Shown here in pieces: positions 2,555 to 13,621 of a DNA stretch of 64,000 nt (position 1 is its first letter; each line of letters begins with the position of its first letter). Origin of the DNA: Solirubrobacterales bacterium. GTDB lineage: Bacteria; Actinomycetota; Thermoleophilia; Solirubrobacterales; 70-9. The DNA is taken from positions 674 to 64,673 of the forward strand of contig DATDAQ010000069.1 of NCBI GenBank assembly GCA_036525295.1, written 5' to 3'. Below the pieces are notes generated by a model. That model was given only the letters and a program-made list of their open reading frames with translations. It was not told where the DNA came from and did not search any database. The position numbers and the translations under genes are program-made.

Positions 2555-5544
2555 TCCGCCGCATGGGGTCCTACTTCGAGTTGTGGTGCCGCTTCGCAGG
2601 GCGGCGCGACCACAACTACTCGGGTTTCATGCTGACTCTGGCGCACTTCGCATGGCCGTACCACTTTGTAGGGCGGCGCGACCGCAATCACTGGGGTTAC
2701 CAGGGATCGGTGGCGCCCTACGCCGGGTGGAGCCACTTCGCTGGGCGGCGCCACCGCAAGCATTCGAAGAAGCAGCGGGCCAGCTACAGCCCCGATGAAG
2801 GTACGCCGACGATCCTCTGCATAGGCATAGCTGCCCTGCTGGGGTTTACGGCCCTCACCACCCTTGTCCTGGCCGCTCCCGCGGGAGCGATCGCGCCGCC
2901 CTGTCCCGACAAAGCCTTCAAAGCGAAATGCTTCGCGCTCGAGTCGATCGACGCCTCGCTCTCGACTACTCAAGCGGGTGCCCACCCCAACCTCACCCTC
3001 AGCTTCGATATTGCCCAGGATCCTGAAAGCGAGCCGGACGAGAAGGGCATGCACGACTCCTTCGTGCCGACCCGTAACGTACGCACCGACGTTCCTCCGG
3101 GACTGGTCGGGGACCCCAGCGTGCTCGGGCTGCCTCAGCAGTGCCGGGTGGTCGAACTGGCGGTGGGAGAATGCCCCAACGGCTCCCAGATCGGCACCGT
3201 CAGAGCTGACCTCTACGGCTCCGACGCCGTCTACATCCAACCCCTCTACATGATGGTGCCGCCGGGCGGGGATGTGATCGCGCGGGTGGGCTTCGTCGGC
3301 GGCACGATCGGGACGACCATCTACGCCGATGCGACGCTGCGCTCCGAGGGCGACTACGGTCTCAGCGTCGAAGTCGTCGACGCCCCGGTGGTCAGTGGCG
3401 TGCACCTGGTCGGAGCCGAAACGAAATTGTGGGGGGTGCCGGCGGCCAAAGAGCACGACACCGAACGCTGCACGCCTGGAGAGGTGTTTACGGACAACTG
3501 CACCGAATCGCCCTCGCGCCCCCCCGGTTCGCGCGAACTGCCCTTCCTTACCAACCCGACCCGCTGCGGGGTGCCACTGGAGATGAAAGTCGCCGCCTCC
3601 GGCTGGGCGGAACCGGAACGCTTCGACACCATGACAGCGAGCTTCCCCCAGATCACCGGCTGCAACAAACTGCCCTTTGGCCCGGGCCTCACGATCGAGC
3701 CGACCAACCGGCGTGCGGGGGCGCCGACCGGCCTCGACGTGACTGCCCGGATACCGGCCTCGGAGGGCGCGAAAGTGCTCGAACCCTCCCAGACGCGCGA
3801 TGTCCGCGTGACGCTGCCCGAGGGAATGACGGTCAATCCAGGCGCCGCCGACGGCCTTGATGTGTGCACCGAAGCGCAGGTTAAATTCGGCAAACGGGTG
3901 GCCGCCGAATGCCCCGACGCGGCCAAGCTGGCCGAGTTCGAGGTCGAGATCCCGGCACTGCCGCGGCGGATGAAAGGCGCGATCTATCTGCGTGAGCCCG
4001 AACCGGGCAACCTCTACCGCTTCTGGGCGGTCGCCGACGACCTTGGCGCGCACGTGAAGCTGCAGGGCCAGCTCAACCTGAACGAGCAGACCGGACAGAT
4101 GGAATCGACGATCCTCGACGTCCCCCAGGCACCGGTGCGCGAGATGAAGATCGTCTTCAAGTCGGGCTTTAGGGCGCCGCTGCTCAATCCGCCCACCTGT
4201 GGGGACTACGCCAGCAAATACGAATTCGTCCCCTGGTCGGGTGGCTTGCCGCAGATCTCCAATTCCCATATGACGATCGACGAAGGCTGCGAGGGCCTCG
4301 GGGGCTTCAGCCCGAAGATCTCCGCCGGCTCCACCGACGCCCAGGGTGGTGCCCACTCGCCCTTCTCCCTCACCATCGCACGCCAGGACGGCGAAGAGAA
4401 CCTCGCTGCCCTGGAGATCACCCTGCCCAGGGGCATGGCCGCCACCTTCGCCGGCATCCCGCGCTGCGAAGGCGTAGCGGCCGAAACGGGTCAGTGCTCG
4501 GCCGAGAGCCGCGTCGGCAGGGTTACCGCCTCCGTCGGCGCCGGCTCCAACCCGCTCTGGGTCCCCCAGCCTGGCAAGCGCCCGACTGCCGTCTACCTCG
4601 GCGGCCCCTACAAGGACGCCCCGCTCAGCGTGATCGCCGTCGTGCCCGCTCAGGCGGGTCCCTTCGACCTCGGCGACCAGGTGGTCCGCTCCGCCATTTA
4701 CGTCGACCCGGTCACCGCCCAGGCGACCGCCAAGTCGGATCCGCTGCCACAGATCCTCGAAGGCGTGCCAGTGCGCTACCGCACCACCAACGTCTTCCTG
4801 GACCGCCCGGGCTTCTCCCTCAACCCGACCTCCTGCGCGCGAAAGGCGACGACGTCCGCGATCCTCTCCGCTGGGGGAAAGATCGCCAATCCGTCCTCTC
4901 CCTACGCCGCGACCGACTGCGACAGGCTCGGCTTCAAGCCCCAGCTCGCCATGCGGCTATTCGGCGGCACCCATAGGGGATCCCACCCGAGGCTGCGCAC
5001 GATCCTCAAGATGCCCCCGGGCGGCGCCAACATCGGCAGCTTCTCGGTGGCCCTGCCGCACTCGGCATTCCTCGACCAGGCCCATATCCGCACCGTCTGC
5101 ACCCGAGTGCAGTTTGCCGCGGACCAATGCCCGGCCGGATCGATCTACGGAGCGGTGAAGGCCAGGACCCCCTTGTTCGACGAGACCCTGGAAGGTCAGA
5201 TCTACCTGCGCTCCTCAAACAACCCGCTACCCGACATGGTCGCCGTGGTCAAGGGCCCGCCCTCCCTGCCATTCGAGGTGCACTCGGCCGCACGGATCGA
5301 CTCGGTGAATGGCGGTATTCGCGCCACCTTCGATTCCTTCCCGGATGCCCCGATCACTGAAGCCGTCGCCAGCTTCCCGGGTGGCAGCAAGGGTCTGATC
5401 GTCAACTCGACCAACCTCTGCGCCAAAGTCAACAAGGTCACTGCCAAATTCACCGGGCACAACGGCAAGAAAGCCACGTTGAACCCGGTGCTGAAGGCTT
5501 CCTGCGGTGCGAAAGCAAAACGCCGCGCAGGACGTGGGCGCTAG
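2551..5544 (+). CDS. Large (about 1000 aa) membrane-anchored or secreted hypothetical protein. It has an N-terminal basic 3x24-aa repeat, one hydrophobic anchor or signal segment, and a large extracytoplasmic domain.
   Basis: The ATG at 2551 overlaps the upstream TGA (ATGA), suggesting translational coupling. A hydrophobic segment ILCIGIAALLGFTALTTLVLAAPAGA follows the basic stretch RRHRKHSKKQRA. It is a long uninterrupted ORF with normal GC3-rich codon usage. I recognise no family. The start is uncertain; a GTG near 2710 is an alternative. Confidence 0.7.
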   Translation: MIRRMGSYFELWCRFAGRRDHNYSGFMLTLAHFAWPYHFVGRRDRNHWGYQGSVAPYAGWSHFAGRRHRKHSKKQRASYSPDEGTPTILCIGIAALLGFTALTTLVLAAPAGAIAPPCPDKAFKAKCFALESIDASLSTTQAGAHPNLTLSFDIAQDPESEPDEKGMHDSFVPTRNVRTDVPPGLVGDPSVLGLPQQCRVVELAVGECPNGSQIGTVRADLYGSDAVYIQPLYMMVPPGGDVIARVGFVGGTIGTTIYADATLRSEGDYGLSVEVVDAPVVSGVHLVGAETKLWGVPAAKEHDTERCTPGEVFTDNCTESPSRPPGSRELPFLTNPTRCGVPLEMKVAASGWAEPERFDTMTASFPQITGCNKLPFGPGLTIEPTNRRAGAPTGLDVTARIPASEGAKVLEPSQTRDVRVTLPEGMTVNPGAADGLDVCTEAQVKFGKRVAAECPDAAKLAEFEVEIPALPRRMKGAIYLREPEPGNLYRFWAVADDLGAHVKLQGQLNLNEQTGQMESTILDVPQAPVREMKIVFKSGFRAPLLNPPTCGDYASKYEFVPWSGGLPQISNSHMTIDEGCEGLGGFSPKISAGSTDAQGGAHSPFSLTIARQDGEENLAALEITLPRGMAATFAGIPRCEGVAAETGQCSAESRVGRVTASVGAGSNPLWVPQPGKRPTAVYLGGPYKDAPLSVIAVVPAQAGPFDLGDQVVRSAIYVDPVTAQATAKSDPLPQILEGVPVRYRTTNVFLDRPGFSLNPTSCARKATTSAILSAGGKIANPSSPYAATDCDRLGFKPQLAMRLFGGTHRGSHPRLRTILKMPPGGANIGSFSVALPHSAFLDQAHIRTVCTRVQFAADQCPAGSIYGAVKARTPLFDETLEGQIYLRSSNNPLPDMVAVVKGPPSLPFEVHSAARIDSVNGGIRATFDSFPDAPITEAVASFPGGSKGLIVNSTNLCAKVNKVTAKFTGHNGKKATLNPVLKASCGAKAKRRAGRGR
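2599..2770 (+). repeat. Tandem triplication with an exact 72-nt (24-codon) period at the 5' end of the 2551..5544 CDS
   Basis: The motif GGGCGGCGC(G/C)ACC(A/G)CAA occurs at 2599, 2671 and 2743, spaced 72 and 72 nt apart. It encodes HF(A/V)GRR(D/H)(H/R)(N/K)(Y/H) three times. Confidence 0.8.
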
Positions 5545-5607
5545 TTCCCTCGCTGTGACCTAACCCGGGGAGACGTCCTCCCCTCCATACGTGTTCGCAC
5601 CGCACCG

Positions 5608-5637
5608 GCACCGATCCGTGCGCACGCGGATCGGTGC
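5608..5637 (+). terminator. GC-rich hairpin (GCACCGATCCG / CGGATCGGTGC), copy 1 of 5. It may be a terminator or processing hairpin, or alternatively an operator.
   Basis: It is a perfect inverted repeat with an 8-9 nt loop, 63 nt after the stop of the 2551..5544 CDS. There is no U-tract. Confidence 0.45.
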
Positions 5638-5820
5638 GTGCGCCGACCCATCACCTCGCCAAGTGCAGGGGGAATCGGGCGCCCTCAGGCTGGGGCGACG
5701 AGTAAGGGCAACGAAGCTCGACATCGCGCCACCGGAGGCTCAGGATCGCCTCTGAGAGCCCGCCACCGGCGGGCATCGAGCAAACGATCCCGGCATGCTC
5801 GCGGGAAGGGAGAATCCATC

Positions 5821-6426
5821 ATGAGACTCATCAAGATGTTCGGCCTCGCCGCGCTCGCGGCAGTGGCGGCAATGGCAGTCGTCGGCGCGACGTCGGCCTC
5901 GGCGTCAACTACCACCCAGCTCTGTGGCGTCCACACCTCCTTAACCTGTGGGGACGGCAACGGATCGGCGCAAGTTCACCTGGTCACAGCTGCTGGTACG
6001 GTATTAAAACTGTTAGCAACGATAAGCGTCTTATGTTTAGGGGAGTTATGGCAGCTTGATACCTTAGGCTTAGGCAACCCACAGTCAGTTCACTCTTTAA
6101 CCAAAACAGTCACAGGTTGTGGCACGGGTTCCTCCCACAACAACTGCACGGTGACCGTTCAGGAACAGCCCTTATTCGACGTCTTAAAGACGGGGTTAGA
6201 CGAAGGGGTCGCGACGTCCACAAACGGCCGCTTACGTCTTCAGTGCGCCAACCTTGGTCTCGACTGCGTTTATGACCTAGAAGGTCTCGAACTCGCAGTT
6301 GGGGGCGGGCATTGGACTTTTGACGAAACCCCCACCAATGAATTAGGCGGCAAATTCTTCTGCCCTGACGAAGGGCTCCTGGACGCGTTATTTGAAACAT
6401 TAGGGAACGTGTTCGTACTTCAGTAG
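5821..6426 (+). CDS. Secreted 8-Cys paralog A (201 aa, Sec signal peptide), unknown family
   Basis: The start was chosen by homology with the other four copies (MRL[IVT]K[MT]F..AALA..AAMA.VGA.SASA) and by a GGGAG SD 8 nt upstream. The longer 5638 start is not supported. I counted 16 in-frame TTA codons manually. Confidence 0.9.
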   Translation: MRLIKMFGLAALAAVAAMAVVGATSASASTTTQLCGVHTSLTCGDGNGSAQVHLVTAAGTVLKLLATISVLCLGELWQLDTLGLGNPQSVHSLTKTVTGCGTGSSHNNCTVTVQEQPLFDVLKTGLDEGVATSTNGRLRLQCANLGLDCVYDLEGLELAVGGGHWTFDETPTNELGGKFFCPDEGLLDALFETLGNVFVLQ

Positions 6427-6451
6427 AAACCAGGACTTGAGTGCACAGCAA

Positions 6452-6483
6452 GCACCGATCTGTGCACACACGCGGATCGGTGC
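6452..6483 (+). terminator. Conserved hairpin, copy 2 (slightly degenerate, GCACCGATC / GATCGGTGC)
   Basis: An inverted repeat 25 nt after the paralog A stop. Confidence 0.45.
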
Positions 6484-6584
6484 GTGCGTGAATAGGACAT
6501 CCTGTCAAGTTGCGGGCAAGCTCCCCACTCGGCGGGCATTGAGCAAGCGACCCCGGCGAACGCTCGCCGGAAGGGAGAATCACC

Positions 6585-7193
6585 ATGAGACTCATCAAGA
6601 CGTTCGGCCTCGCCGCGCTCGCGGCGTTGGCGGCAATGGCATTTGTCGGCGCGGCGTCGGTATCGGCCTCGACCAGCACGCAGCTCTGCACCATCCATAC
6701 GGGCTTAACGTGTGGGGCTGGGAGCGCAGCCACTTCGGTTCACATGACCCTAGCAGTAGGAACTGTTGGCAAACTATTAGGCTCGATCAGCGTCTTATGC
6801 TTAGGCGCTTTAGTGGAAGCCGAAGCCTTAGGGTTAGGCAAACCCCAGTCGGTGCACACCACGTCCATGTCGTTCTCAGGCTGCGGTACCGGCTCCGGGC
6901 ACAGCAACTGCACGGTGACCGTACTGGAAGAGCCTTTAGCTAATCTCTTAAAAACTGGGTTAGATGAAGGGATCCTTACTCCTACAAATGGTCGCATTTT
7001 GCTCCATTGCTCCAATCTTGGCATATACTGCACGTATGACCTCGAAGGTCTTGAATTGGAAGTCGGCGACCAACACCTAACCATGGAAGAAACCCCCGCC
7101 AAAGAATTAGGCGGCAAATTCTTCTGCCCCGACGAAGGGCTCCTAGACGGGTTATTGAAAACCACGTTTGCGAATACATACGTACTTCAGTAG
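6585..7193 (+). CDS. Secreted 8-Cys paralog B (202 aa)
   Basis: It has signal peptide MRLIKTFGLAALAALAAMAFVGAASVSAS and the conserved Cys pattern and motifs LKTGLDEG, ELGGKFFCPDEG. An SD GGGAG lies upstream. I counted about 12 TTA codons. Confidence 0.9.
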   Translation: MRLIKTFGLAALAALAAMAFVGAASVSASTSTQLCTIHTGLTCGAGSAATSVHMTLAVGTVGKLLGSISVLCLGALVEAEALGLGKPQSVHTTSMSFSGCGTGSGHSNCTVTVLEEPLANLLKTGLDEGILTPTNGRILLHCSNLGIYCTYDLEGLELEVGDQHLTMEETPAKELGGKFFCPDEGLLDGLLKTTFANTYVLQ

Positions 7194-7213
7194 TCGTCTG
7201 AATACTGAGTTCA

Positions 7214-7245
7214 CGCACCGATCCGTGCACACGCGGATCGGTGCG
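7214..7245 (+). terminator. Conserved hairpin, copy 3 (CGCACCGATCCG-8nt-CGGATCGGTGCG)
   Basis: A perfect 12-bp stem 20 nt after the paralog B stop. Confidence 0.45.
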
Positions 7246-7428
7246 TGCGCTGTCTGGTCATCTCGCCAGGTGCAGGGAATCGTATGCCCCTCTGGATCGG
7301 GGTGATGGATGGAGATAGCAGAGCTCGACATCGCAGCGCCGGAGCCTCAGGATCGCCTGTGAGAGTCCGCCACTCGGCGGGCATCTAGCAAACGATCCCG
7401 GCAACCTTCGCCGGAAGGGAGATCCACC

Positions 7429-8034
7429 ATGAGACTCGTCAAGACGTTCGCCTCCGCGGCGCTCGCGGTGTTGGCGGCAATGGCATTCGTCGGCGCCACC
7501 TCAGCGTCGGCCTCGACTACCACCCAGCTCTGTGGTATCCACAACTCCTTAACCTGTGGAGACGGCAACGGATCGGCGCAGGTTCATCTGGTCCTTGCTG
7601 CTGGCACGGTATTACAACTATTAGCAACGATAAACGTCTTATGTTTAGGGGAGTTATGGGAGCTTGATACCTTAGGCTTAGGCAATCCACAGTCAGTTCA
7701 CACTTTAACCCACACAGTCTCGGGTTGTGGCACAGGGCCCTCCCACGACAACTGCACAGTGACCGTTCAGGAGCAGTCTTTATTCAACGTCTTAAAGACG
7801 GGGTTAGATGAAGGGGTCGCGACGTCCACGAACGGCCGCTTACGTCTCCAGTGCGCCAACCTTGGTCTCGACTGCGTGTATGACCTAGAAGGTCTCGAAG
7901 CCTCAGTTGGGAACGGGCATTGGACTTTTGAAGAAACCCCCACCAATGAATTAGGCGGCAAATTCTTCTGCCCCGACGAAGGTTTCGTCCACGCGTTACT
8001 GGAAACATTAGGGGACGTGTACGTCCTTCAGTAG
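7429..8034 (+). CDS. Secreted 8-Cys paralog C (201 aa), closest to paralog A
   Basis: Same architecture as the others and very similar to A along its whole length. I counted 16 TTA codons. Confidence 0.9.
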   Translation: MRLVKTFASAALAVLAAMAFVGATSASASTTTQLCGIHNSLTCGDGNGSAQVHLVLAAGTVLQLLATINVLCLGELWELDTLGLGNPQSVHTLTHTVSGCGTGPSHDNCTVTVQEQSLFNVLKTGLDEGVATSTNGRLRLQCANLGLDCVYDLEGLEASVGNGHWTFEETPTNELGGKFFCPDEGFVHALLETLGDVYVLQ

Positions 8035-8057
8035 AAACGGGCCTTGAGTGCACAGCA

Positions 8058-8089
8058 CGCACCGATCCGTGCACACGCGGATCGGTGCG
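8058..8089 (+). terminator. Conserved hairpin, copy 4
   Basis: A perfect 12-bp stem 23 nt after the paralog C stop. Confidence 0.45.
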
Positions 8090-8272
8090 TGCGCTGTCTG
8101 GTCATCTCGCCAGGTGCAGGGGGACTCGAGCCCTTCTGGATCGGGGTAATGAATGGAGATAGCAGAGCTCGACATCGCAGCGCCGGAGCCTCAGGATCGC
8201 CTGTGAGAGCCCGCCACTCGGCGGGCATCTAGCAAACGATCCCGGCAACGCTCGCCGGAAGGGAGATTCACC

Positions 8273-8878
8273 ATGAGACTCACCAAGATGTTCGGCCTCG
8301 CCGCGCTCGCGGCGGTGGCGGCAATGGCATTCGTCGGCGCGACGTCGGCGTCGGCCTCCGCTAACACGCAGCTCTGCACCGTCCATACAGGCTTAACATG
8401 TGGGGCTGGGAACGCAGCCACTTCGGTTCACTATGTTCTGACAGCCGGCACGGTACTGACAGTGTTAGCTGAAATTGATGTTTTATGTTTAGGCTATTTA
8501 CTGGAAAAAACCGCATTAGGATTAGGGAATCCCCAGTCGGTTCACACTACAACCCAGACGTTCTCGGGCTGCGGCACCAACGCCACGCACACCAACGCCA
8601 CGGTGACCGTTCAGGAACAGCCTTTAGCCAACCTCTTAAAGACGGGGTTAGACGAAGGAGTCTTAACAGCCACAAACGGACGCCTAAGAATTGTGGTTTC
8701 CAGCCTCGGCCTTGACTGCGTAATCGATACCGCAGGCCTGGAACTCGCAGTCAGCGAAGGGATGCTCACCGCGAATGAAACTCCCCTCACGGAATTAGGT
8801 AGCAAATTCTTTTGCCCCAACGAAGGAGTGCTGGATGCGTTACTGGAAGCATTAGGGAGCGTTTACGTTCTCGGATAA
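8273..8878 (+). CDS. Secreted paralog D (201 aa), the 6-Cys variant
   Basis: Same architecture as the others. Two of the eight conserved Cys are replaced together (NC->NA and LQC->IVV). I counted about 14 TTA codons. Confidence 0.9.
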   Translation: MRLTKMFGLAALAAVAAMAFVGATSASASANTQLCTVHTGLTCGAGNAATSVHYVLTAGTVLTVLAEIDVLCLGYLLEKTALGLGNPQSVHTTTQTFSGCGTNATHTNATVTVQEQPLANLLKTGLDEGVLTATNGRLRIVVSSLGLDCVIDTAGLELAVSEGMLTANETPLTELGSKFFCPNEGVLDALLEALGSVYVLG

Positions 8879-8898
8879 AAGCTTTAAGGCAGCCACCA

Positions 8899-8930
8899 CG
8901 CACCGATCCGTGCACACGCGGATCGGTGCG
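8899..8930 (+). terminator. Conserved hairpin, copy 5
   Basis: A perfect 12-bp stem 20 nt after the paralog D stop. Confidence 0.45.
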
Positions 8931-9116
8931 TGCGCTGTCTGGTCATCTCGCCAGGTGCAGGGGGAATCGGGCGCCCCTCAGACTGGGGCGATGGGTAGGG
9001 GTAGCAAAGCTCGACATCGCATCGGCGGAGGCTCAGGATCGCCTGTGAGAAGCCCGCCGCTCGGCGGGCACTGAGCAAGCGACCCCGGCGAACGCTCGCC
9101 GGAAGGGAGATTCACC

Positions 9117-9719
9117 ATGAGACTCATCAAGACGTTCGGCCTCGCCGCGCTCGCGGCGGTGGCGGCAATGGCATTCGTCGGCGCGACATCGGCGTCGGCC
9201 ACCAGCACGCAGGTCTGCACCTCCCACACGGGCTTAACCTGTGGGGCTGGACAAGGAGCGGGCACGATCCATGCGGTTCTCGCAGCCGGCACGGTCTTAA
9301 AGCTCTTAGCCCCAATAAATGTCTTATGTTTAGGAGAGTTATGGGAATCCACTGCCTTAGGGTTAGGTAATCCACAGTCGATTCATTTCACAAGCAAAAC
9401 ATCCACTGGTTGTGGCACCGGATCGGCGCACAGCAACTGTACGTTAACTACACAAGAACAACCATTAGCCAATCTATTAAAGACAGGGTTAGATGAAGGC
9501 ATCTTGACATTAACAAGTGGCCGTTTACGTCTACAGTGCCCCAATATCGGCATCGACTGCGTGTATGACGCTGAAGGCATCGAACTCGCGGGCGGAGGCG
9601 GGCACTGGACCATGGAAGAAACCCCCACCAATGAATTAGGCGGCAAATTCTTCTGCCCCGACGAAGGACTCATCGACTCGTTAATGGAAACGTTAGGAGA
9701 GGCGCACATCCTCGGGTAG
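9117..9719 (+). CDS. Secreted 8-Cys paralog E (200 aa), third subtype
   Basis: Same architecture as the others. I counted about 17 TTA codons. Confidence 0.9.
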   Translation: MRLIKTFGLAALAAVAAMAFVGATSASATSTQVCTSHTGLTCGAGQGAGTIHAVLAAGTVLKLLAPINVLCLGELWESTALGLGNPQSIHFTSKTSTGCGTGSAHSNCTLTTQEQPLANLLKTGLDEGILTLTSGRLRLQCPNIGIDCVYDAEGIELAGGGGHWTMEETPTNELGGKFFCPDEGLIDSLMETLGEAHILG

Positions 9720-9734
9720 GTCCAAGGTGGAACT

Positions 9735-9760
9735 GCACCCCGCCAAGTTCGCCGGGGTGC
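9735..9760 (+). terminator. Distinct GC hairpin closing the array (GCACCCCG-10nt-CGGGGTGC)
   Basis: An 8-bp perfect stem 15 nt after the paralog E stop. There is no U-tract. Confidence 0.45.
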
Positions 9761-10069
9761 GGTCCGCCGCTCTAGAAACCAAATACACCGTCGGCATACT
9801 TCGAGCTTGCGCCCTTAGGCGCGTGCGCGTTTTCGATATGTTGTGGTTTGCAGGCAATTGTGACGCATCGAGCTTCTGGGGTTGAGTGTGTTGGAGAAAT
9901 CGCCTTGATTGGCAGTCGGCGAACTGTTATTTCATACACACCCCTTGCCAGGCAGTAGAAACCAGCGTCGCTGGGGACTCCGGCTCGGTCTGTGGGTTTG
10001 GACAACGTTCGGTGCTGAAGCCCTACCGAGCGTGTTTGTGATGAGCCATAAGTCGACCCCCTACTTTCG

Positions 10070-13000
10070 TCAGCGGGGGGCCGAGCGGTGGGAGTGGGCG
10101 GGGCCGGTGGTCCCGCCCACTCTGCCGCGCACAGTGCCGGCGATCAGCTCGTCGGGGGCCTCGTCCTCTGGAATGAAGCCCGACTTCATGCCGAAGTAGA
10201 CAGCCTGAGGGTGGTGGGCGACAATCGCCACCGTTGACTGCTCGGGCAGGACGGCGTAGCCGCCGGAGAGGGTCATCCCGATCTGCTCGAGGTCGAGCAG
10301 GCGCCAGACCTTCTCGTGCTCGGACTGGTCCGGGCAGGCGGGGTAACCCCAGGAGTAGCGGCGGCCCTGGTCGAGCGGTATGGCGAGGTCGCGGCGGACC
10401 TCGGAGTGCAGCCACTCGGCCAGTCCCTCCGCCGCCTGTACGCCGAGGCCATGGACGAAGAGCTGCTCGGCGAACTCGCCTTCCCGCTCCAGCCGCTCGA
10501 TCAGCTCGGTCACCTCGGGCCCGACGGTTACGCCCTGCAGAGCGACGACGTCGCGTTCGCCGGACTTCAGCGGTCGGAAGAAGTCCGCCAGGCAGATCCG
10601 GTCGTGCTTGGGCTGGCGCGGGAAGGCGAGCCGCTCGAGCTCCCGCCCGGCGTCCTCTGGATCGAAGACGACCAGCTCGTTGCCATCGGCCGCCGCCGGG
10701 AAGTACCCGAGCCTGGCCCGCGGGTGAAGATAGTCCTGCTCGTGCCACATACGCTCGAGGCGGGGCGCGAAACCCTCCTCGCCGTCGGCTCCCTCGACCA
10801 GCTGCCGCCAGGCCTCGCCCTTTACCCCACGCCCGCCCCAGTGCAGCTTGAAGAGCACGTGGCGGTCGAGGTGGGGGAAGACCTGGTCGAGGTCGATCTC
10901 GACCTCGCGCACTCCCCAGAAGGGCGGCTCGGGGACCGGCACGTCGGTGCGGGCCGCTGAGCGGACGCTCGCGTCGGTGGTCGGCGGTCCGTCGTCGGCC
11001 TTCGCCGGCTTCTCGCGCAGCTCCTGTGCCTCGGCGCGGATCCGGGAGACCAGCGCCTCGCGCGCCTCTTCGTCGACCAGCGCATCCATCGTGTCGAGGC
11101 CCTGGAAGGCGTCCTTGCAGTAGAAGACACCGGGTCCATAGACCTCGTCGGATTCCTTCCCCTGCGGGTAGAGCGTGCGGCGGCCGAAGTCGCGGTTGAT
11201 CGCCGCGCCTCCTATCAGCACCGGGAAGCCGAGCCCGCGCTGGTGCAGCTCCTGGACGCAGATCGGCATCTGCTTCGAGGTCGAGACGAGCAGGGCGGAG
11301 AGGCCGATCGCGTCGGCCTCGTTCTCGACCGCGGCCTCGATGATCGCGTCAACCGGGACCTGCTTGCCGAGGTCGATCACGGTGTAGCCGTTGTTGGTGA
11401 GGATCGTGTTGACCAGCGACTTGCCGATGTCGTGCACGTCGCCGAAGACGGTGGCGATCACCACCTTGCCCTTGGTGTGGCCGTCGATCCGGTCGAGGTA
11501 GTTCTCCAGCTGCGCCACGGCGCGCTTCATCGCTTCGGCCGACTGCAGGACGAAGGGCAGGATCAGTTCGCCGGCGCCGAACTTGTCGCCGACCTCCTTC
11601 ATCGCCGGCAGCAGCACCTCGTTCAGCGTCGGCACGGCGCCGATCTTCTCGACCGAGCGGTCGATCCACACCTCGACCCCATCCTTCTTGCGGCGCAGGA
11701 TGTGCCAGTGCAGGGCATCCTCGGGCTCCATCCCCTCGGTCGGGTCGCCCGCCTCCTCGGCGGCCTCCTCGCCCTTGGACTCGAAGTGGGCGATGAAGCG
11801 CTCCAGCGCGTCCTCGCGGCGGTCGAAGACGAGGTCGTCGGTCAGCTCGCGCTCGGAGGTGGAGATCTCCGAGTAGGGGGTGATGTGGTTGGGGTTGACC
11901 ATCGCCAGGTCGAGCCCGGCCTCGACGCAGTGGTGCAGGAAGACCGAGTTGAGGACCGCGCGGGCCGGTTGCGAGACGCCAAAGGAGACGTTGGAGACCC
12001 CGAGCGAGGTCTTGACGCCGGGCAGCTCGGCCTTGATCCGGCGGATCCCGTCGATCGTCTCCACCGCCGAGGGCCGCCACTCGGCCTCGCCCGTGGTCAG
12101 GGTGAAGGTGAGCGCGTCGAAGATCAGCGCCTCCGGGTTGAGGCCGTGGTCCTCGCAGGCAATGTCGCGGATGCGCTTGGCGACCTCGACCTTGCGCTCG
12201 GCTGTCTTCGCCATCCCGACCTCGTCGATCGTCAGCGCGATCAGCGCCGCGCCGTGGGCCTTGGCGATCGGCACGACGACGTCGGCCTTCTCGCGGCCGG
12301 CCTCGAGGTTGACCGAGTTGACGATCGCCCGCCCGGGGATCTGCTCCAGCGCGGCCCGGATCACCTCCGGCTCGGTCGAGTCGACCTGGACCGGCGCCGG
12401 CTGGGTCAGCGAGATCCGCTTCACCACCGCCGCCATCTGCTCGTCCTCGTCGGAGCGCTCGGTCAGCGCCACGCAGACGTCGAGCACGTGGGCGCCGCCC
12501 TCGACCTGGTCCTCGGCGACCTGTACCAGGCCGTCGTAGTCGTCGGCGAGCAGCAGCTCCTTCGCCTTGCGCGAGCCCTGCGAGTTGACCCGCTCGCCGA
12601 CCAGGGTCGGCCGCGGTTCCTGGACCAGTGGTGTGGAGGTCATCATCGAAGAGACCTGGGGGGGGCCCGGGGCCGGGCGCTCGCCGGGCACGCGCCCATC
12701 GACCCGCTCGCGGATCGCCGCGACGTGCGCCGGCGTCGTGCCACAGCAGCCGCCGACGATGCCGACGCCGTAGCGCTCGACGAACTCGCCGAGGGTGGCG
12801 GCGAGCGGCTCGGGCTCTTCGGGGAAGATCGTCTCGCCGTCCGGCCCCTGCAGCGGCAGACCGGCGTTGGGTATGCAGTGGACCGGCAGCGGGCTGTTCT
12901 CGCCCAGGAAGCGGATCGCGTCGCGCATGTCCTCGGGGCCGGTCGAGCAGTTGAGCCCGATGACGTCGACGTCGAGCGCCGCAAGCGTCGTCAGCACCGC

Positions 13001-13621
13001 CTGGATGTCGGTGCCGAGCAGCATCTTGCCGCCCTGGGGCAGGAGCGAGACGCTGGTCTGGATCGGCAGCCGCCGGCCGGTTGCCGCGAAGGCCTCGCGG
13101 GCGCCGAAGATCGCCGCCTTCACCTCGAGGATGTCCTGCGCGGTCTCGATAATGATCAGGTCGGCGCCGCCCTCGACCAGACCCCGGGCCTGCTCGGCGA
13201 AGACCTCGACCAGGCGGACGAAGGTGATGTCGCCCAGGGTGGGGTCGGTGGAGGCGGGGAGGAACCCGGTCGGCCCGATCGAGCCGGCGACGAAGCGGTC
13301 GGGCCCCGCCGCCTTGCGGGCGATCTCGGCCGCCCTGACGTTGATCTCAAGCGTGTGCTCGCCCAGGCCCCACTCTTCGAGCTTCAGCCGCGAGCCCTGG
13401 AAGGTGTCGGTCTCGACCACCTCGGCACCGGCATCCAGCATCGATGCGTGCACGCCCTCGATCGTGTCGGGCCGGTTCAGCACCAGCGCCTCGTGACATT
13501 TGCCCTCCAGCCCGCCGTAATCCTCCTGGGTCAGCTCGAACTGCTCCAGGGTCGCGCCCATGCCGCCGTCGAAGACGACGACGCGCTCGCGCGTAGCGGC
13601 TATGAAGTCACGCTCGGCCAT
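10070..13621 (-). CDS. metH: Cobalamin-dependent methionine synthase
   Basis: It is 1183 aa with an Hcy-methyltransferase N-terminus, a pterin-binding region, the B12-binding motif GDVHDIGK, and a C-terminal AdoMet-activation domain. Confidence 0.95.
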   Translation of the reverse strand: MAERDFIAATRERVVVFDGGMGATLEQFELTQEDYGGLEGKCHEALVLNRPDTIEGVHASMLDAGAEVVETDTFQGSRLKLEEWGLGEHTLEINVRAAEIARKAAGPDRFVAGSIGPTGFLPASTDPTLGDITFVRLVEVFAEQARGLVEGGADLIIIETAQDILEVKAAIFGAREAFAATGRRLPIQTSVSLLPQGGKMLLGTDIQAVLTTLAALDVDVIGLNCSTGPEDMRDAIRFLGENSPLPVHCIPNAGLPLQGPDGETIFPEEPEPLAATLGEFVERYGVGIVGGCCGTTPAHVAAIRERVDGRVPGERPAPGPPQVSSMMTSTPLVQEPRPTLVGERVNSQGSRKAKELLLADDYDGLVQVAEDQVEGGAHVLDVCVALTERSDEDEQMAAVVKRISLTQPAPVQVDSTEPEVIRAALEQIPGRAIVNSVNLEAGREKADVVVPIAKAHGAALIALTIDEVGMAKTAERKVEVAKRIRDIACEDHGLNPEALIFDALTFTLTTGEAEWRPSAVETIDGIRRIKAELPGVKTSLGVSNVSFGVSQPARAVLNSVFLHHCVEAGLDLAMVNPNHITPYSEISTSERELTDDLVFDRREDALERFIAHFESKGEEAAEEAGDPTEGMEPEDALHWHILRRKKDGVEVWIDRSVEKIGAVPTLNEVLLPAMKEVGDKFGAGELILPFVLQSAEAMKRAVAQLENYLDRIDGHTKGKVVIATVFGDVHDIGKSLVNTILTNNGYTVIDLGKQVPVDAIIEAAVENEADAIGLSALLVSTSKQMPICVQELHQRGLGFPVLIGGAAINRDFGRRTLYPQGKESDEVYGPGVFYCKDAFQGLDTMDALVDEEAREALVSRIRAEAQELREKPAKADDGPPTTDASVRSAARTDVPVPEPPFWGVREVEIDLDQVFPHLDRHVLFKLHWGGRGVKGEAWRQLVEGADGEEGFAPRLERMWHEQDYLHPRARLGYFPAAADGNELVVFDPEDAGRELERLAFPRQPKHDRICLADFFRPLKSGERDVVALQGVTVGPEVTELIERLEREGEFAEQLFVHGLGVQAAEGLAEWLHSEVRRDLAIPLDQGRRYSWGYPACPDQSEHEKVWRLLDLEQIGMTLSGGYAVLPEQSTVAIVAHHPQAVYFGMKSGFIPEDEAPDELIAGTVRGRVGGTTGPAHSHRSAPR

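Follow-up and report, generated by a model that had tools for sequence, protein, structure and literature searches.

Predicted promoter, two-hairpin leader and a covarying hairpin next to the Shine-Dalgarno sequence in a secreted-protein family of uncultured Solirubrobacterales

Conserved cassettes of promoter, leader and signal peptide that evolve by recombination are known from the upstream homology box families of Borrelia and from the vlp genes of Mycoplasma. The array of paralogs studied here is like these cassettes in having a 5' module far more conserved than the mature part and in the mosaic histories of its 5' and 3' portions. It differs in that no phase-variable repeat or invertible element was seen, and the organism and the gene family are unrelated.

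Precedents for hairpins in leaders are the 5'-terminal stem-loops that stabilise the mRNAs of E. coli ompA and papA, and the B. subtilis aprE leader, with its 5' stem-loop plus ribosome binding (review PMC3997798). The leaders of our array share with these a short GC-rich hairpin a few nucleotides from the 5' end (here a predicted one), a further structure or a strong Shine-Dalgarno (SD) sequence near the start codon, stems that are conserved while loops are free, and genes for abundant exported proteins. In contrast to those systems, the transcription start site, and hence the 5'-terminal position of the hairpin, is only predicted here, the host is an actinobacterium of the class Thermoleophilia, and the SD-adjacent hairpin is common to about 100 paralogous leaders instead of one gene. 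A second parallel is the structured standby site (de Smit and van Duin; Espah Borujeni et al. 2014, both as cited in PMC12743556), in which a hairpin likewise adjoins an accessible SD on its 5' side, with an A/C-rich single strand beside it. The hairpin described here differs in having no modelled effect on accessibility, and standby sites are defined by their mechanism and do not form a sequence family. Rfam cis-regulatory leaders such as riboswitches are also conserved non-coding leaders upstream of gene families; unlike them, the present leader has no Rfam match, no multi-helix aptamer and no expression platform, and its SD is never sequestered.

The paralog family and its leader types

The window that we analysed is a stretch of 64,000 nt from contig C69 of a 2.44-Mb metagenome-assembled genome of 68% GC. 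It contains five tandem, co-oriented genes whose products have approximately 200 amino acids and a signal peptide:

5821-6426, + strand, paralog A
6585-7193, + strand, paralog B
7429-8034, + strand, paralog C
8273-8878, + strand, paralog D, with its ATG at 8273
9117-9719, + strand, paralog E

No match was found in Pfam or NCBIfam for this family or for the 1150-aa open reading frame upstream of it, and a search for contigs encoding paralog D returned no record. The source genome has about 21 family matches distributed over seven contigs. At E <= 1e-20 the family was present in 14 of 162 same-genus genomes, and in the same search it was absent from 16 genomes of other genera of the order. We took the upstream regions of 103 family members from the source genome and about 14 other same-genus Solirubrobacterales genomes. 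These leaders are of three types, mutually unalignable upstream of the last ~45 nt:

Type 1, the leader type of the window, found also at C36:8436 and in genomes G021, G043 and G117
Type 2, TTGACT-N16/17-TAACCA, later GTTCGAAATCGA, then the SD-adjacent hairpin (H3)
Type 3, TTGACY-N18-TATCTA-ACCCTGTCCAAAACAACCAG, then H3

The metH gene (9720-13621 in the window) adjoins the type-1 array in G021, G043 and G117, as it does in the window. Copy number beside metH varies among these four species, with at least 3 copies in G021, 4 in G043 (two of which have another leader type), 5 in the window and 6 in G117. The metH match of a further genome, G023 (C2:356227-359740), is in four pieces, two of them with in-frame TGA codons (4 and 3), which could represent a broken gene or assembly frameshifts.

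The coding sequences of the paralogs have a GC content of 0.55, against 0.68 for the genome, and paralogs A to E (mature parts within 5905-9716) contain 12-17 TTA leucine codons each, none of them among the first 30 codons. Genome-wide, TTA accounts for 0.25% of leucine codons (121 in 1037 long open reading frames). The usual 89-nt tRNA-Leu(UAA) lies at C10:6907-6995 of the source genome, and aragorn identified a second tRNA-Leu(UAA) of only 73 nt at C151:34373-34445, on the same contig as a member of the family (C151:14613-15197). Two other family members, C36:19730-20890 and C36:21053-22186, are fused in frame to a second, related domain, for a total of ~390 aa; this second domain belongs to the same family but is distant (34-35% identity).

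Layout of the leader and its putative promoter

The original prediction treated the 112 nt before paralog D as a conserved structured leader containing three helices, a candidate cis-regulatory RNA repeated before each paralog. The strings and coordinates that it quoted (H1, the H2 arms, H3, GGGAG at 8261-8265 and the ATG at 8273) are all present, and the segments that it regarded as equivalent before A, B, C and E align with the D leader. The elements considered below, given for unit D, are the following:

8055-8092, + strand, post-stop hairpin, 15-17 bp long, at the 5' boundary of the type-1 unit, outside the flagged span (other units: 5607-5641, 6451-6487, 7212-7248, 8897-8933)
8169-8174, + strand, putative -35 box TCGACA, identity 1.00 in 13 type-1 leaders of 4 species (A 5718-5723, C 7325-7330, E 9011-9016; AGGACA in B, 6494-6499)
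8192-8197, + strand, putative -10 box CAGGAT, 17 nt after the -35 box, identity 0.92 (A 5741-5746, C 7348-7353, E 9034-9039; CAAGCT in B, 6517-6522)
8194-8199 and 8237-8242, + strand, arms of the proposed outer helix H2, GGATCG/CGATCC, which pairs in A, C and D and is unsupported
8205-8272, + strand, predicted 5' UTR of ~68 nt, with the start site placed 7-8 nt after the -10 box
8209-8226, + strand, hairpin H1, GCCCGCC-ACTC-GGCGGGC, with conserved arms and a variable loop (A 5758-5774, C 7365-7382, E 9052-9069; degenerate in B, 6520-6537)
8227-8241, + strand, A/C-rich single-stranded linker ATCTAGCAAACGATC, identity 0.76
8242-8258, + strand, hairpin H3, CCGGC-AACGCTC-GCCGG, family-wide and covarying (A 5789-5805, B 6553-6570 with 7 bp, C 7398-7414, E 9085-9102 with 7 bp)
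8259-8266, + strand, Shine-Dalgarno sequence AAGGGAGA, identity 0.90, then 6 nt of spacer before the ATG at 8273

In a sliding profile over the five units, mean pairwise identity was 0.83-0.91 in the leader (8160-8272), 0.90-0.93 in the signal-peptide codons (8273-8350, the first ~80 coding nucleotides), 0.57-0.80 in the mature coding sequence and 0.90-0.95 around the post-stop hairpin (8058-8098). The claim that the leader is more conserved than the coding sequence therefore holds against the mature part but not against the signal-peptide codons, and the conserved block is the leader together with the signal peptide, not the leader alone. In the source genome the post-stop hairpin occurs only in type-1 units, the five in the window and the one on C36, and no U-tract follows it. 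Folded by itself, the D leader is only marginally better than its shuffles (z = -1.93, with 10 of 200 shuffles equally good), so that claims about structure must rest on comparison.

Comparison of the 13 full-length type-1 leaders showed TCGACA-N17-CA(G/A)GAT in every one. No columns are better conserved than those of the two hexamers (1.00 and 0.92), and the spacer between them is fixed at 17 nt, with no indels and a sequence identity of 0.77; conserved hexamers at 17 +/- 1 bp with a free spacer are the pattern of a sigma-70/sigma-A promoter. The intergenic regions upstream of A, D and E contain no other -35/-10 candidate, and of the two candidates upstream of C this pair is the better. A generic scan of the leaders for promoters and terminators found nothing, CAGGAT being below the threshold of the promoter scan. 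Across the source genome, TANNNT hexamers peak with their ends 6-10 nt before candidate start codons (128, 121, 72, 83 and 46, against a background of ~10). The commonest of these -10 hexamers, of which there are about 400 instances, are TAGGCT, TAGCCT and, in third place, TAGGAT, and no -35 consensus accompanies the peak in this genome. Many of the genes appear to be leaderless, the -10 boxes of such genes ending 6-7 nt before the start codon. CAGGAT is one base off TAGGAT and departs from TANNNT at position 1.

Judging from these patterns, 8169-8197 is most likely an ordinary sigma-A-type promoter, and the mRNA leader that follows it is short and contains two hairpins. The predicted UTR of D folds as H1 plus H3 (-29.6 kcal/mol), with four nucleotides (GAGA) before H1. 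The 5' arm of H2 overlaps the putative -10 box and on the promoter reading would lie outside the transcript. H2 had been drawn as a helix enclosing H1, and it failed the comparison, as no double change was seen among the 13 type-1 leaders and 10 cells were unpaired by one-sided changes. The linker, the 3' part of which is the CGATCC arm of H2, is unpaired in both the minimum free energy (MFE) and the consensus folds. What survives of the proposed structured leader is two of its three helices, H1 and H3, but not H2 or the upstream ~45 nt, which look like promoter DNA; the flagged 112 nt are most likely a composite and not a single RNA element.

The evidence for H1, originally described as a tetraloop hairpin, comes from the same 13 leaders of four species. 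Its arms are 0.90-0.91 identical, the loop is 0.47 identical and varies from 3 to 6 nt, and 97.8% of the cells are paired. The changes consist of one compensation of C-G to U-A (in G043), four wobble changes and two breaks. H1 thus shows selection on pairing over loop sequence, as looked for in a 5' stem-loop stabiliser, with genuine but thin support, the species being close. In G023, the same distance separates TGGACA-N17-GAGGAT from a hairpin of different sequence downstream of it, CCTGCC-CCG-GGCAGG.

Paralog B had been said to lack about 80 nt from the middle of its leader and to have a weakened stem, as a natural variant. Approximately 80 nt of intergenic DNA are in fact missing and H1 is degenerate (GCTCCCC/GGCGGGC), but the promoter-like AGGACA-N17-CAAGCT (6494/6517) is kept, so this is not simply a leader without its middle. 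The -10 box of B abuts the H1 remnant. The 5' arm of H1 would there fall in the promoter or start region, and the stem has decayed exactly at that place.

Outside type 1, an exact TTGACN box followed after N16-18 by a TAnnnA-like hexamer was seen in 51 of 101 leaders (types 2 and 3). The sixth base of this hexamer is A in 48 of the 51 (TAACCA, TATCTA, TGTCTA, TACCTA), whereas the genomic motif is TANNNT, and TANNNA gives no peak upstream of candidate starts in the source genome. The TAnnnA form could reflect another sigma factor or a shifted register. A sigma-28-like reading of GCGGATAA in type-2 leaders was rejected because the spacing is wrong. At G117:C1:988700-993900, two intact paralogs have the post-stop hairpin, then ~22 nt, then H3 and the SD; these short leaders have neither H1 nor promoter-like boxes. 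Given that no promoter is visible, some copies must be read through from upstream, and the post-stop hairpin cannot be a tight terminator.

The hairpin abutting the Shine-Dalgarno sequence

The third element of the original prediction, the hairpin abutting the SD, proved to be family-wide, kept in position and significantly covarying. In 79 of 101 family leaders, as against 275 of 903 control genes of the source genome, a perfect stem of 5 bp or more has its end 0-5 nt upstream of GGAG; for stems of 6 bp or more at the same position the counts are 68 of 101 and 126 of 903. Of the 79 hairpins, 66 have their 3' end 2-3 nt upstream of GGAG, and within the source genome the combination of H3 motif and SD is confined to the family.

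Covariation was evaluated for seven pairs of H3 in a structure-blind MAFFT alignment of 98 distinct sequences. Paired cells made up 82.6%, compared with 25-45% when the partner column was slid, and there were 40 double-change cells, compared with 15.7 +/- 3.0 in shuffles, none of 500 of which reached 40. At pair 31-54, for example, 49 sequences have C-G, 20 have U-A and 13 have U-G. RNAalifold returned H3 on the type-1 alignment; on the MAFFT alignment of 98 sequences it did so when RIBOSUM scoring was used (-12.8 kcal/mol), whereas the default scoring missed it. The family uses about 39 different stems, including CCGGC/GCCGG, CCGGCGA/TCGCCGG, CCCGGC/GCCGGG and CGGCGGC/GCCGCCG, and further CTCGGCGG/CCGCCGAG, CTCGGTGC/GCACCGAG and CCCGGCAAGC/GCTTGCCGGG; CCGAC/GTCGG is the H3 stem of the type-1 leader of G021. 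Loops vary in both sequence and length, the inner stem plus loop measuring 3-17 nt. The fusion genes on C36 have H3 hairpins of other sequence in their leaders, CTCGGCAC/GTGCCGAG and CTCGGCGC/GCGTCGAG.

On this comparative evidence, H3 is a real, selected hairpin and the sole leader element common to the whole family, spanning three otherwise unalignable leader types and about 14 same-genus genomes. A comparison of strands (27 G.U against 18 A.C, p = 0.23) does not single out the sense RNA strand. Mapped on the protein tree, changes from C-G to U-A number at least 13, compared with 17.7 (minimum 14) when labels are shuffled, and because the protein tree does not track the history of the leaders these figures give no firm count of independent events.

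Conservation continues beyond the SD into the start of the gene. Codons 2 to 4, AGA-CTC-ATC, are kept in 91, 78 and 68 of the 103 members, respectively, and AGA, which accounts for 2.1% of arginine codons in the genome, is nevertheless codon 2 in those 91. The start region ATG/GTG-AGA-CTC-ATC (e.g. 5821-5835) is conserved at the nucleotide level even where protein identity is 35-45%.

The leader does not look like a riboswitch, and nothing suggests ligand sensing or switching. An Rfam search, which had been proposed as a check, gave no family near its gathering score over 5000-10500 and none in the leaders (cmscan, E-value mode), and five further loci covering all leader types had 0 matches at E <= 0.1. 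In place of a ligand pocket there are two independent simple hairpins with variable loops, joined by a linker of 0.76 identity. No expression platform was found, as the SD is unpaired in the modelled MFE structure of the predicted UTR. The sole SD-pairing helix proposed, GGAUCGCC/GGAGAUCC from RNAalifold, was rejected because it depends on the putative -10 box and is disrupted in G117. Nor do the leaders contain a recognisable terminator. The terminator scan returned none on their + strand, and no U-tract follows H1 (then ATCTAGCAAACG) or H3 (then AAGGGAGA). In an RNA thermometer of the ROSE or fourU kind the SD would be paired within a hairpin, and H3 ends before GGAG (66 of 79). A leader peptide was likewise rejected. 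An ATG frame is present in C, D and E, not in A, its frame and end shift between copies and species, and this candidate lacks an SD and is situated before the predicted transcription start. An anti-SD sequence hidden in H3 was discarded also, having a complementarity of 3-4 nt only and no effect in modelling. A role of H3 as an insulator is not supported, since replacing either arm with A's altered the modelled unpaired probability of the region from SD to AUG only from 0.523 to 0.505-0.524.

Weighing the explanations

We infer a start site and a stabilising or translational role from the conservation, covariation and position of these elements. The explanation that we favour, with moderate confidence, is a promoter (~8169-8197) followed by a UTR of ~68 nt with two constitutive hairpins that stabilise the message or set the context of translation. 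Each paralog would have its own promoter, and transcription of D would start near 8205. H1, about 4 nt from the predicted 5' end, would most likely make the mRNA resistant to RNase E or RNase J in 5'-end-dependent decay. H3, which ends 2-3 nt before a strong SD, would most likely be a decay barrier or an element of a standby site, fixing the context of the A-rich, nucleotide-constrained initiation region AAGGGAGA-N6-AUG-AGA-CUC-AUC. In transcripts that are cleaved in the linker or read through from upstream, H3 would itself become the protective 5' hairpin.

The original prediction had named recent gene conversion as the process that, if it explained the conservation entirely, would undo the case for a functional leader. 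Such conversion is seen in part. The units (5545-9719) are mosaics in which the 5' modules and the mature modules have different nearest relatives. A and C are 0.90 identical in the mature part and 0.82 in the signal-peptide nucleotides; C and D are 0.67 identical in the mature part and share a 46-nt promoter segment at 46/46, with 0.94 identity from H1 to the ATG; and B and E reach 0.92 from H1 to the ATG. As a sequence pattern, this mosaicism is the signature of gene conversion or recombination, which is active on the 5' modules and raises identity within genomes. Leader identity is 0.80 across species and 0.86 within genomes (0.66 and 0.735, respectively, for mature nucleotides). The type-1 species are close, with MetH identity of 0.84-0.88 at 4-fold sites, and the cross-species leader identity of 0.80, which is not above that figure, alone shows no constraint. 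It might accordingly be supposed that recent duplication and gene conversion account for the conservation and that the hairpins have no function. We regard this as very unlikely, because the leader is conserved in a pattern (boxes and stems 0.90-1.00, H1 loop 0.47, other segments 0.56-0.77), because substitutions in the stems are compensatory or wobble, and above all because H3 is kept, with different stems, in unalignable leader types across about 14 genomes, which gene conversion does not explain. Identity within the array is partly due to selection on the elements and partly to gene conversion moving the promoter, UTR and signal peptide. A different non-RNA explanation would make H1, H3 or both DNA palindromes, operators for a dimeric transcription factor downstream of the promoter. 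As inverted repeats they are perfect and GC-rich, their position, about +5 to +55, is a usual one for a repressor, and the G.U and A.C counts favour no strand. The spacing of the half-sites varies with the loop of H1 (3-6 nt) and the interior of H3 (3-17 nt), however, and the stems change while pairing is kept (CCGAC/GTCGG, CTCGGTGC/GCACCGAG, CCTGCC/GGCAGG), which points to RNA pairing and not to a fixed protein-DNA contact; we rate this as the least probable of the alternatives.

The remaining rivals accept the hairpins as RNA structures and assign them other roles. If the array is expressed as one or a few long transcripts, the post-stop hairpin, H1 and H3 would be intercistronic processing or stability hairpins and the boxes would not be promoters. 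The co-orientation of all the genes, the post-stop hairpin without a U-tract and the intact G117 copies, in which that hairpin precedes H3 with no promoter-like boxes, fit such an arrangement, and H3 would be a 5'-terminal protective hairpin after cleavage of the A/C-rich linker. Against it, the type-1 boxes bear the signature of a promoter, with unchanging hexamers always 17 nt apart and a spacer free to vary in sequence, and an exact TTGACN box is found in 51 leaders of types 2 and 3. We think it unlikely that the boxes are not promoters, although long transcripts and individual promoters are not mutually exclusive. H3, possibly with H1, could instead be the operator for a dedicated trans factor (an RNA-binding protein, sRNA or ligand) in a family-wide switch of translation or stability. 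The outer stem C(C/U)CGGC...GCCG(G/A)G is kept across leader types and species beyond the needs of pairing, the distance from H3 to the SD is strictly kept, and the motif is confined to the family. Moreover, removal of H3 leaves the SD accessible in prediction, so that a purely thermodynamic role is not evident. However, H3 is a plain hairpin of 5-10 bp whose loops differ in both length and sequence, it matches no Rfam family, and neither a conserved alternative fold nor sequestration of the SD was found, and we consider an operator improbable to much the same degree. A more specific proposal, that an RNA-binding factor on the conserved H3 stem co-ordinates the ~20 fast-diverging secreted paralogs of each genome or makes their expression mutually exclusive, is more doubtful again. 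Control through H3 could act together with a second gate, formed by the 12-17 TTA codons and tRNA-Leu(UAA).

With the promoter and two-hairpin leader as the favoured reading, what seemed to be an orphan riboswitch becomes a concrete, testable unit of promoter, 5' hairpin and SD-adjacent hairpin. The analysis also provides a first internal estimate of the -10 consensus of the source genome and of its many apparently leaderless genes. H3 is an undescribed leader hairpin that marks about 100 genes of a lineage-restricted, TTA-loaded, fast-evolving secreted family in uncultured Solirubrobacterales. If H3 is no more than a stabiliser, the leader would be a compact natural expression cassette from a poorly known class of actinobacteria; if it is more, it would offer a handle on how this family of secreted proteins is regulated.
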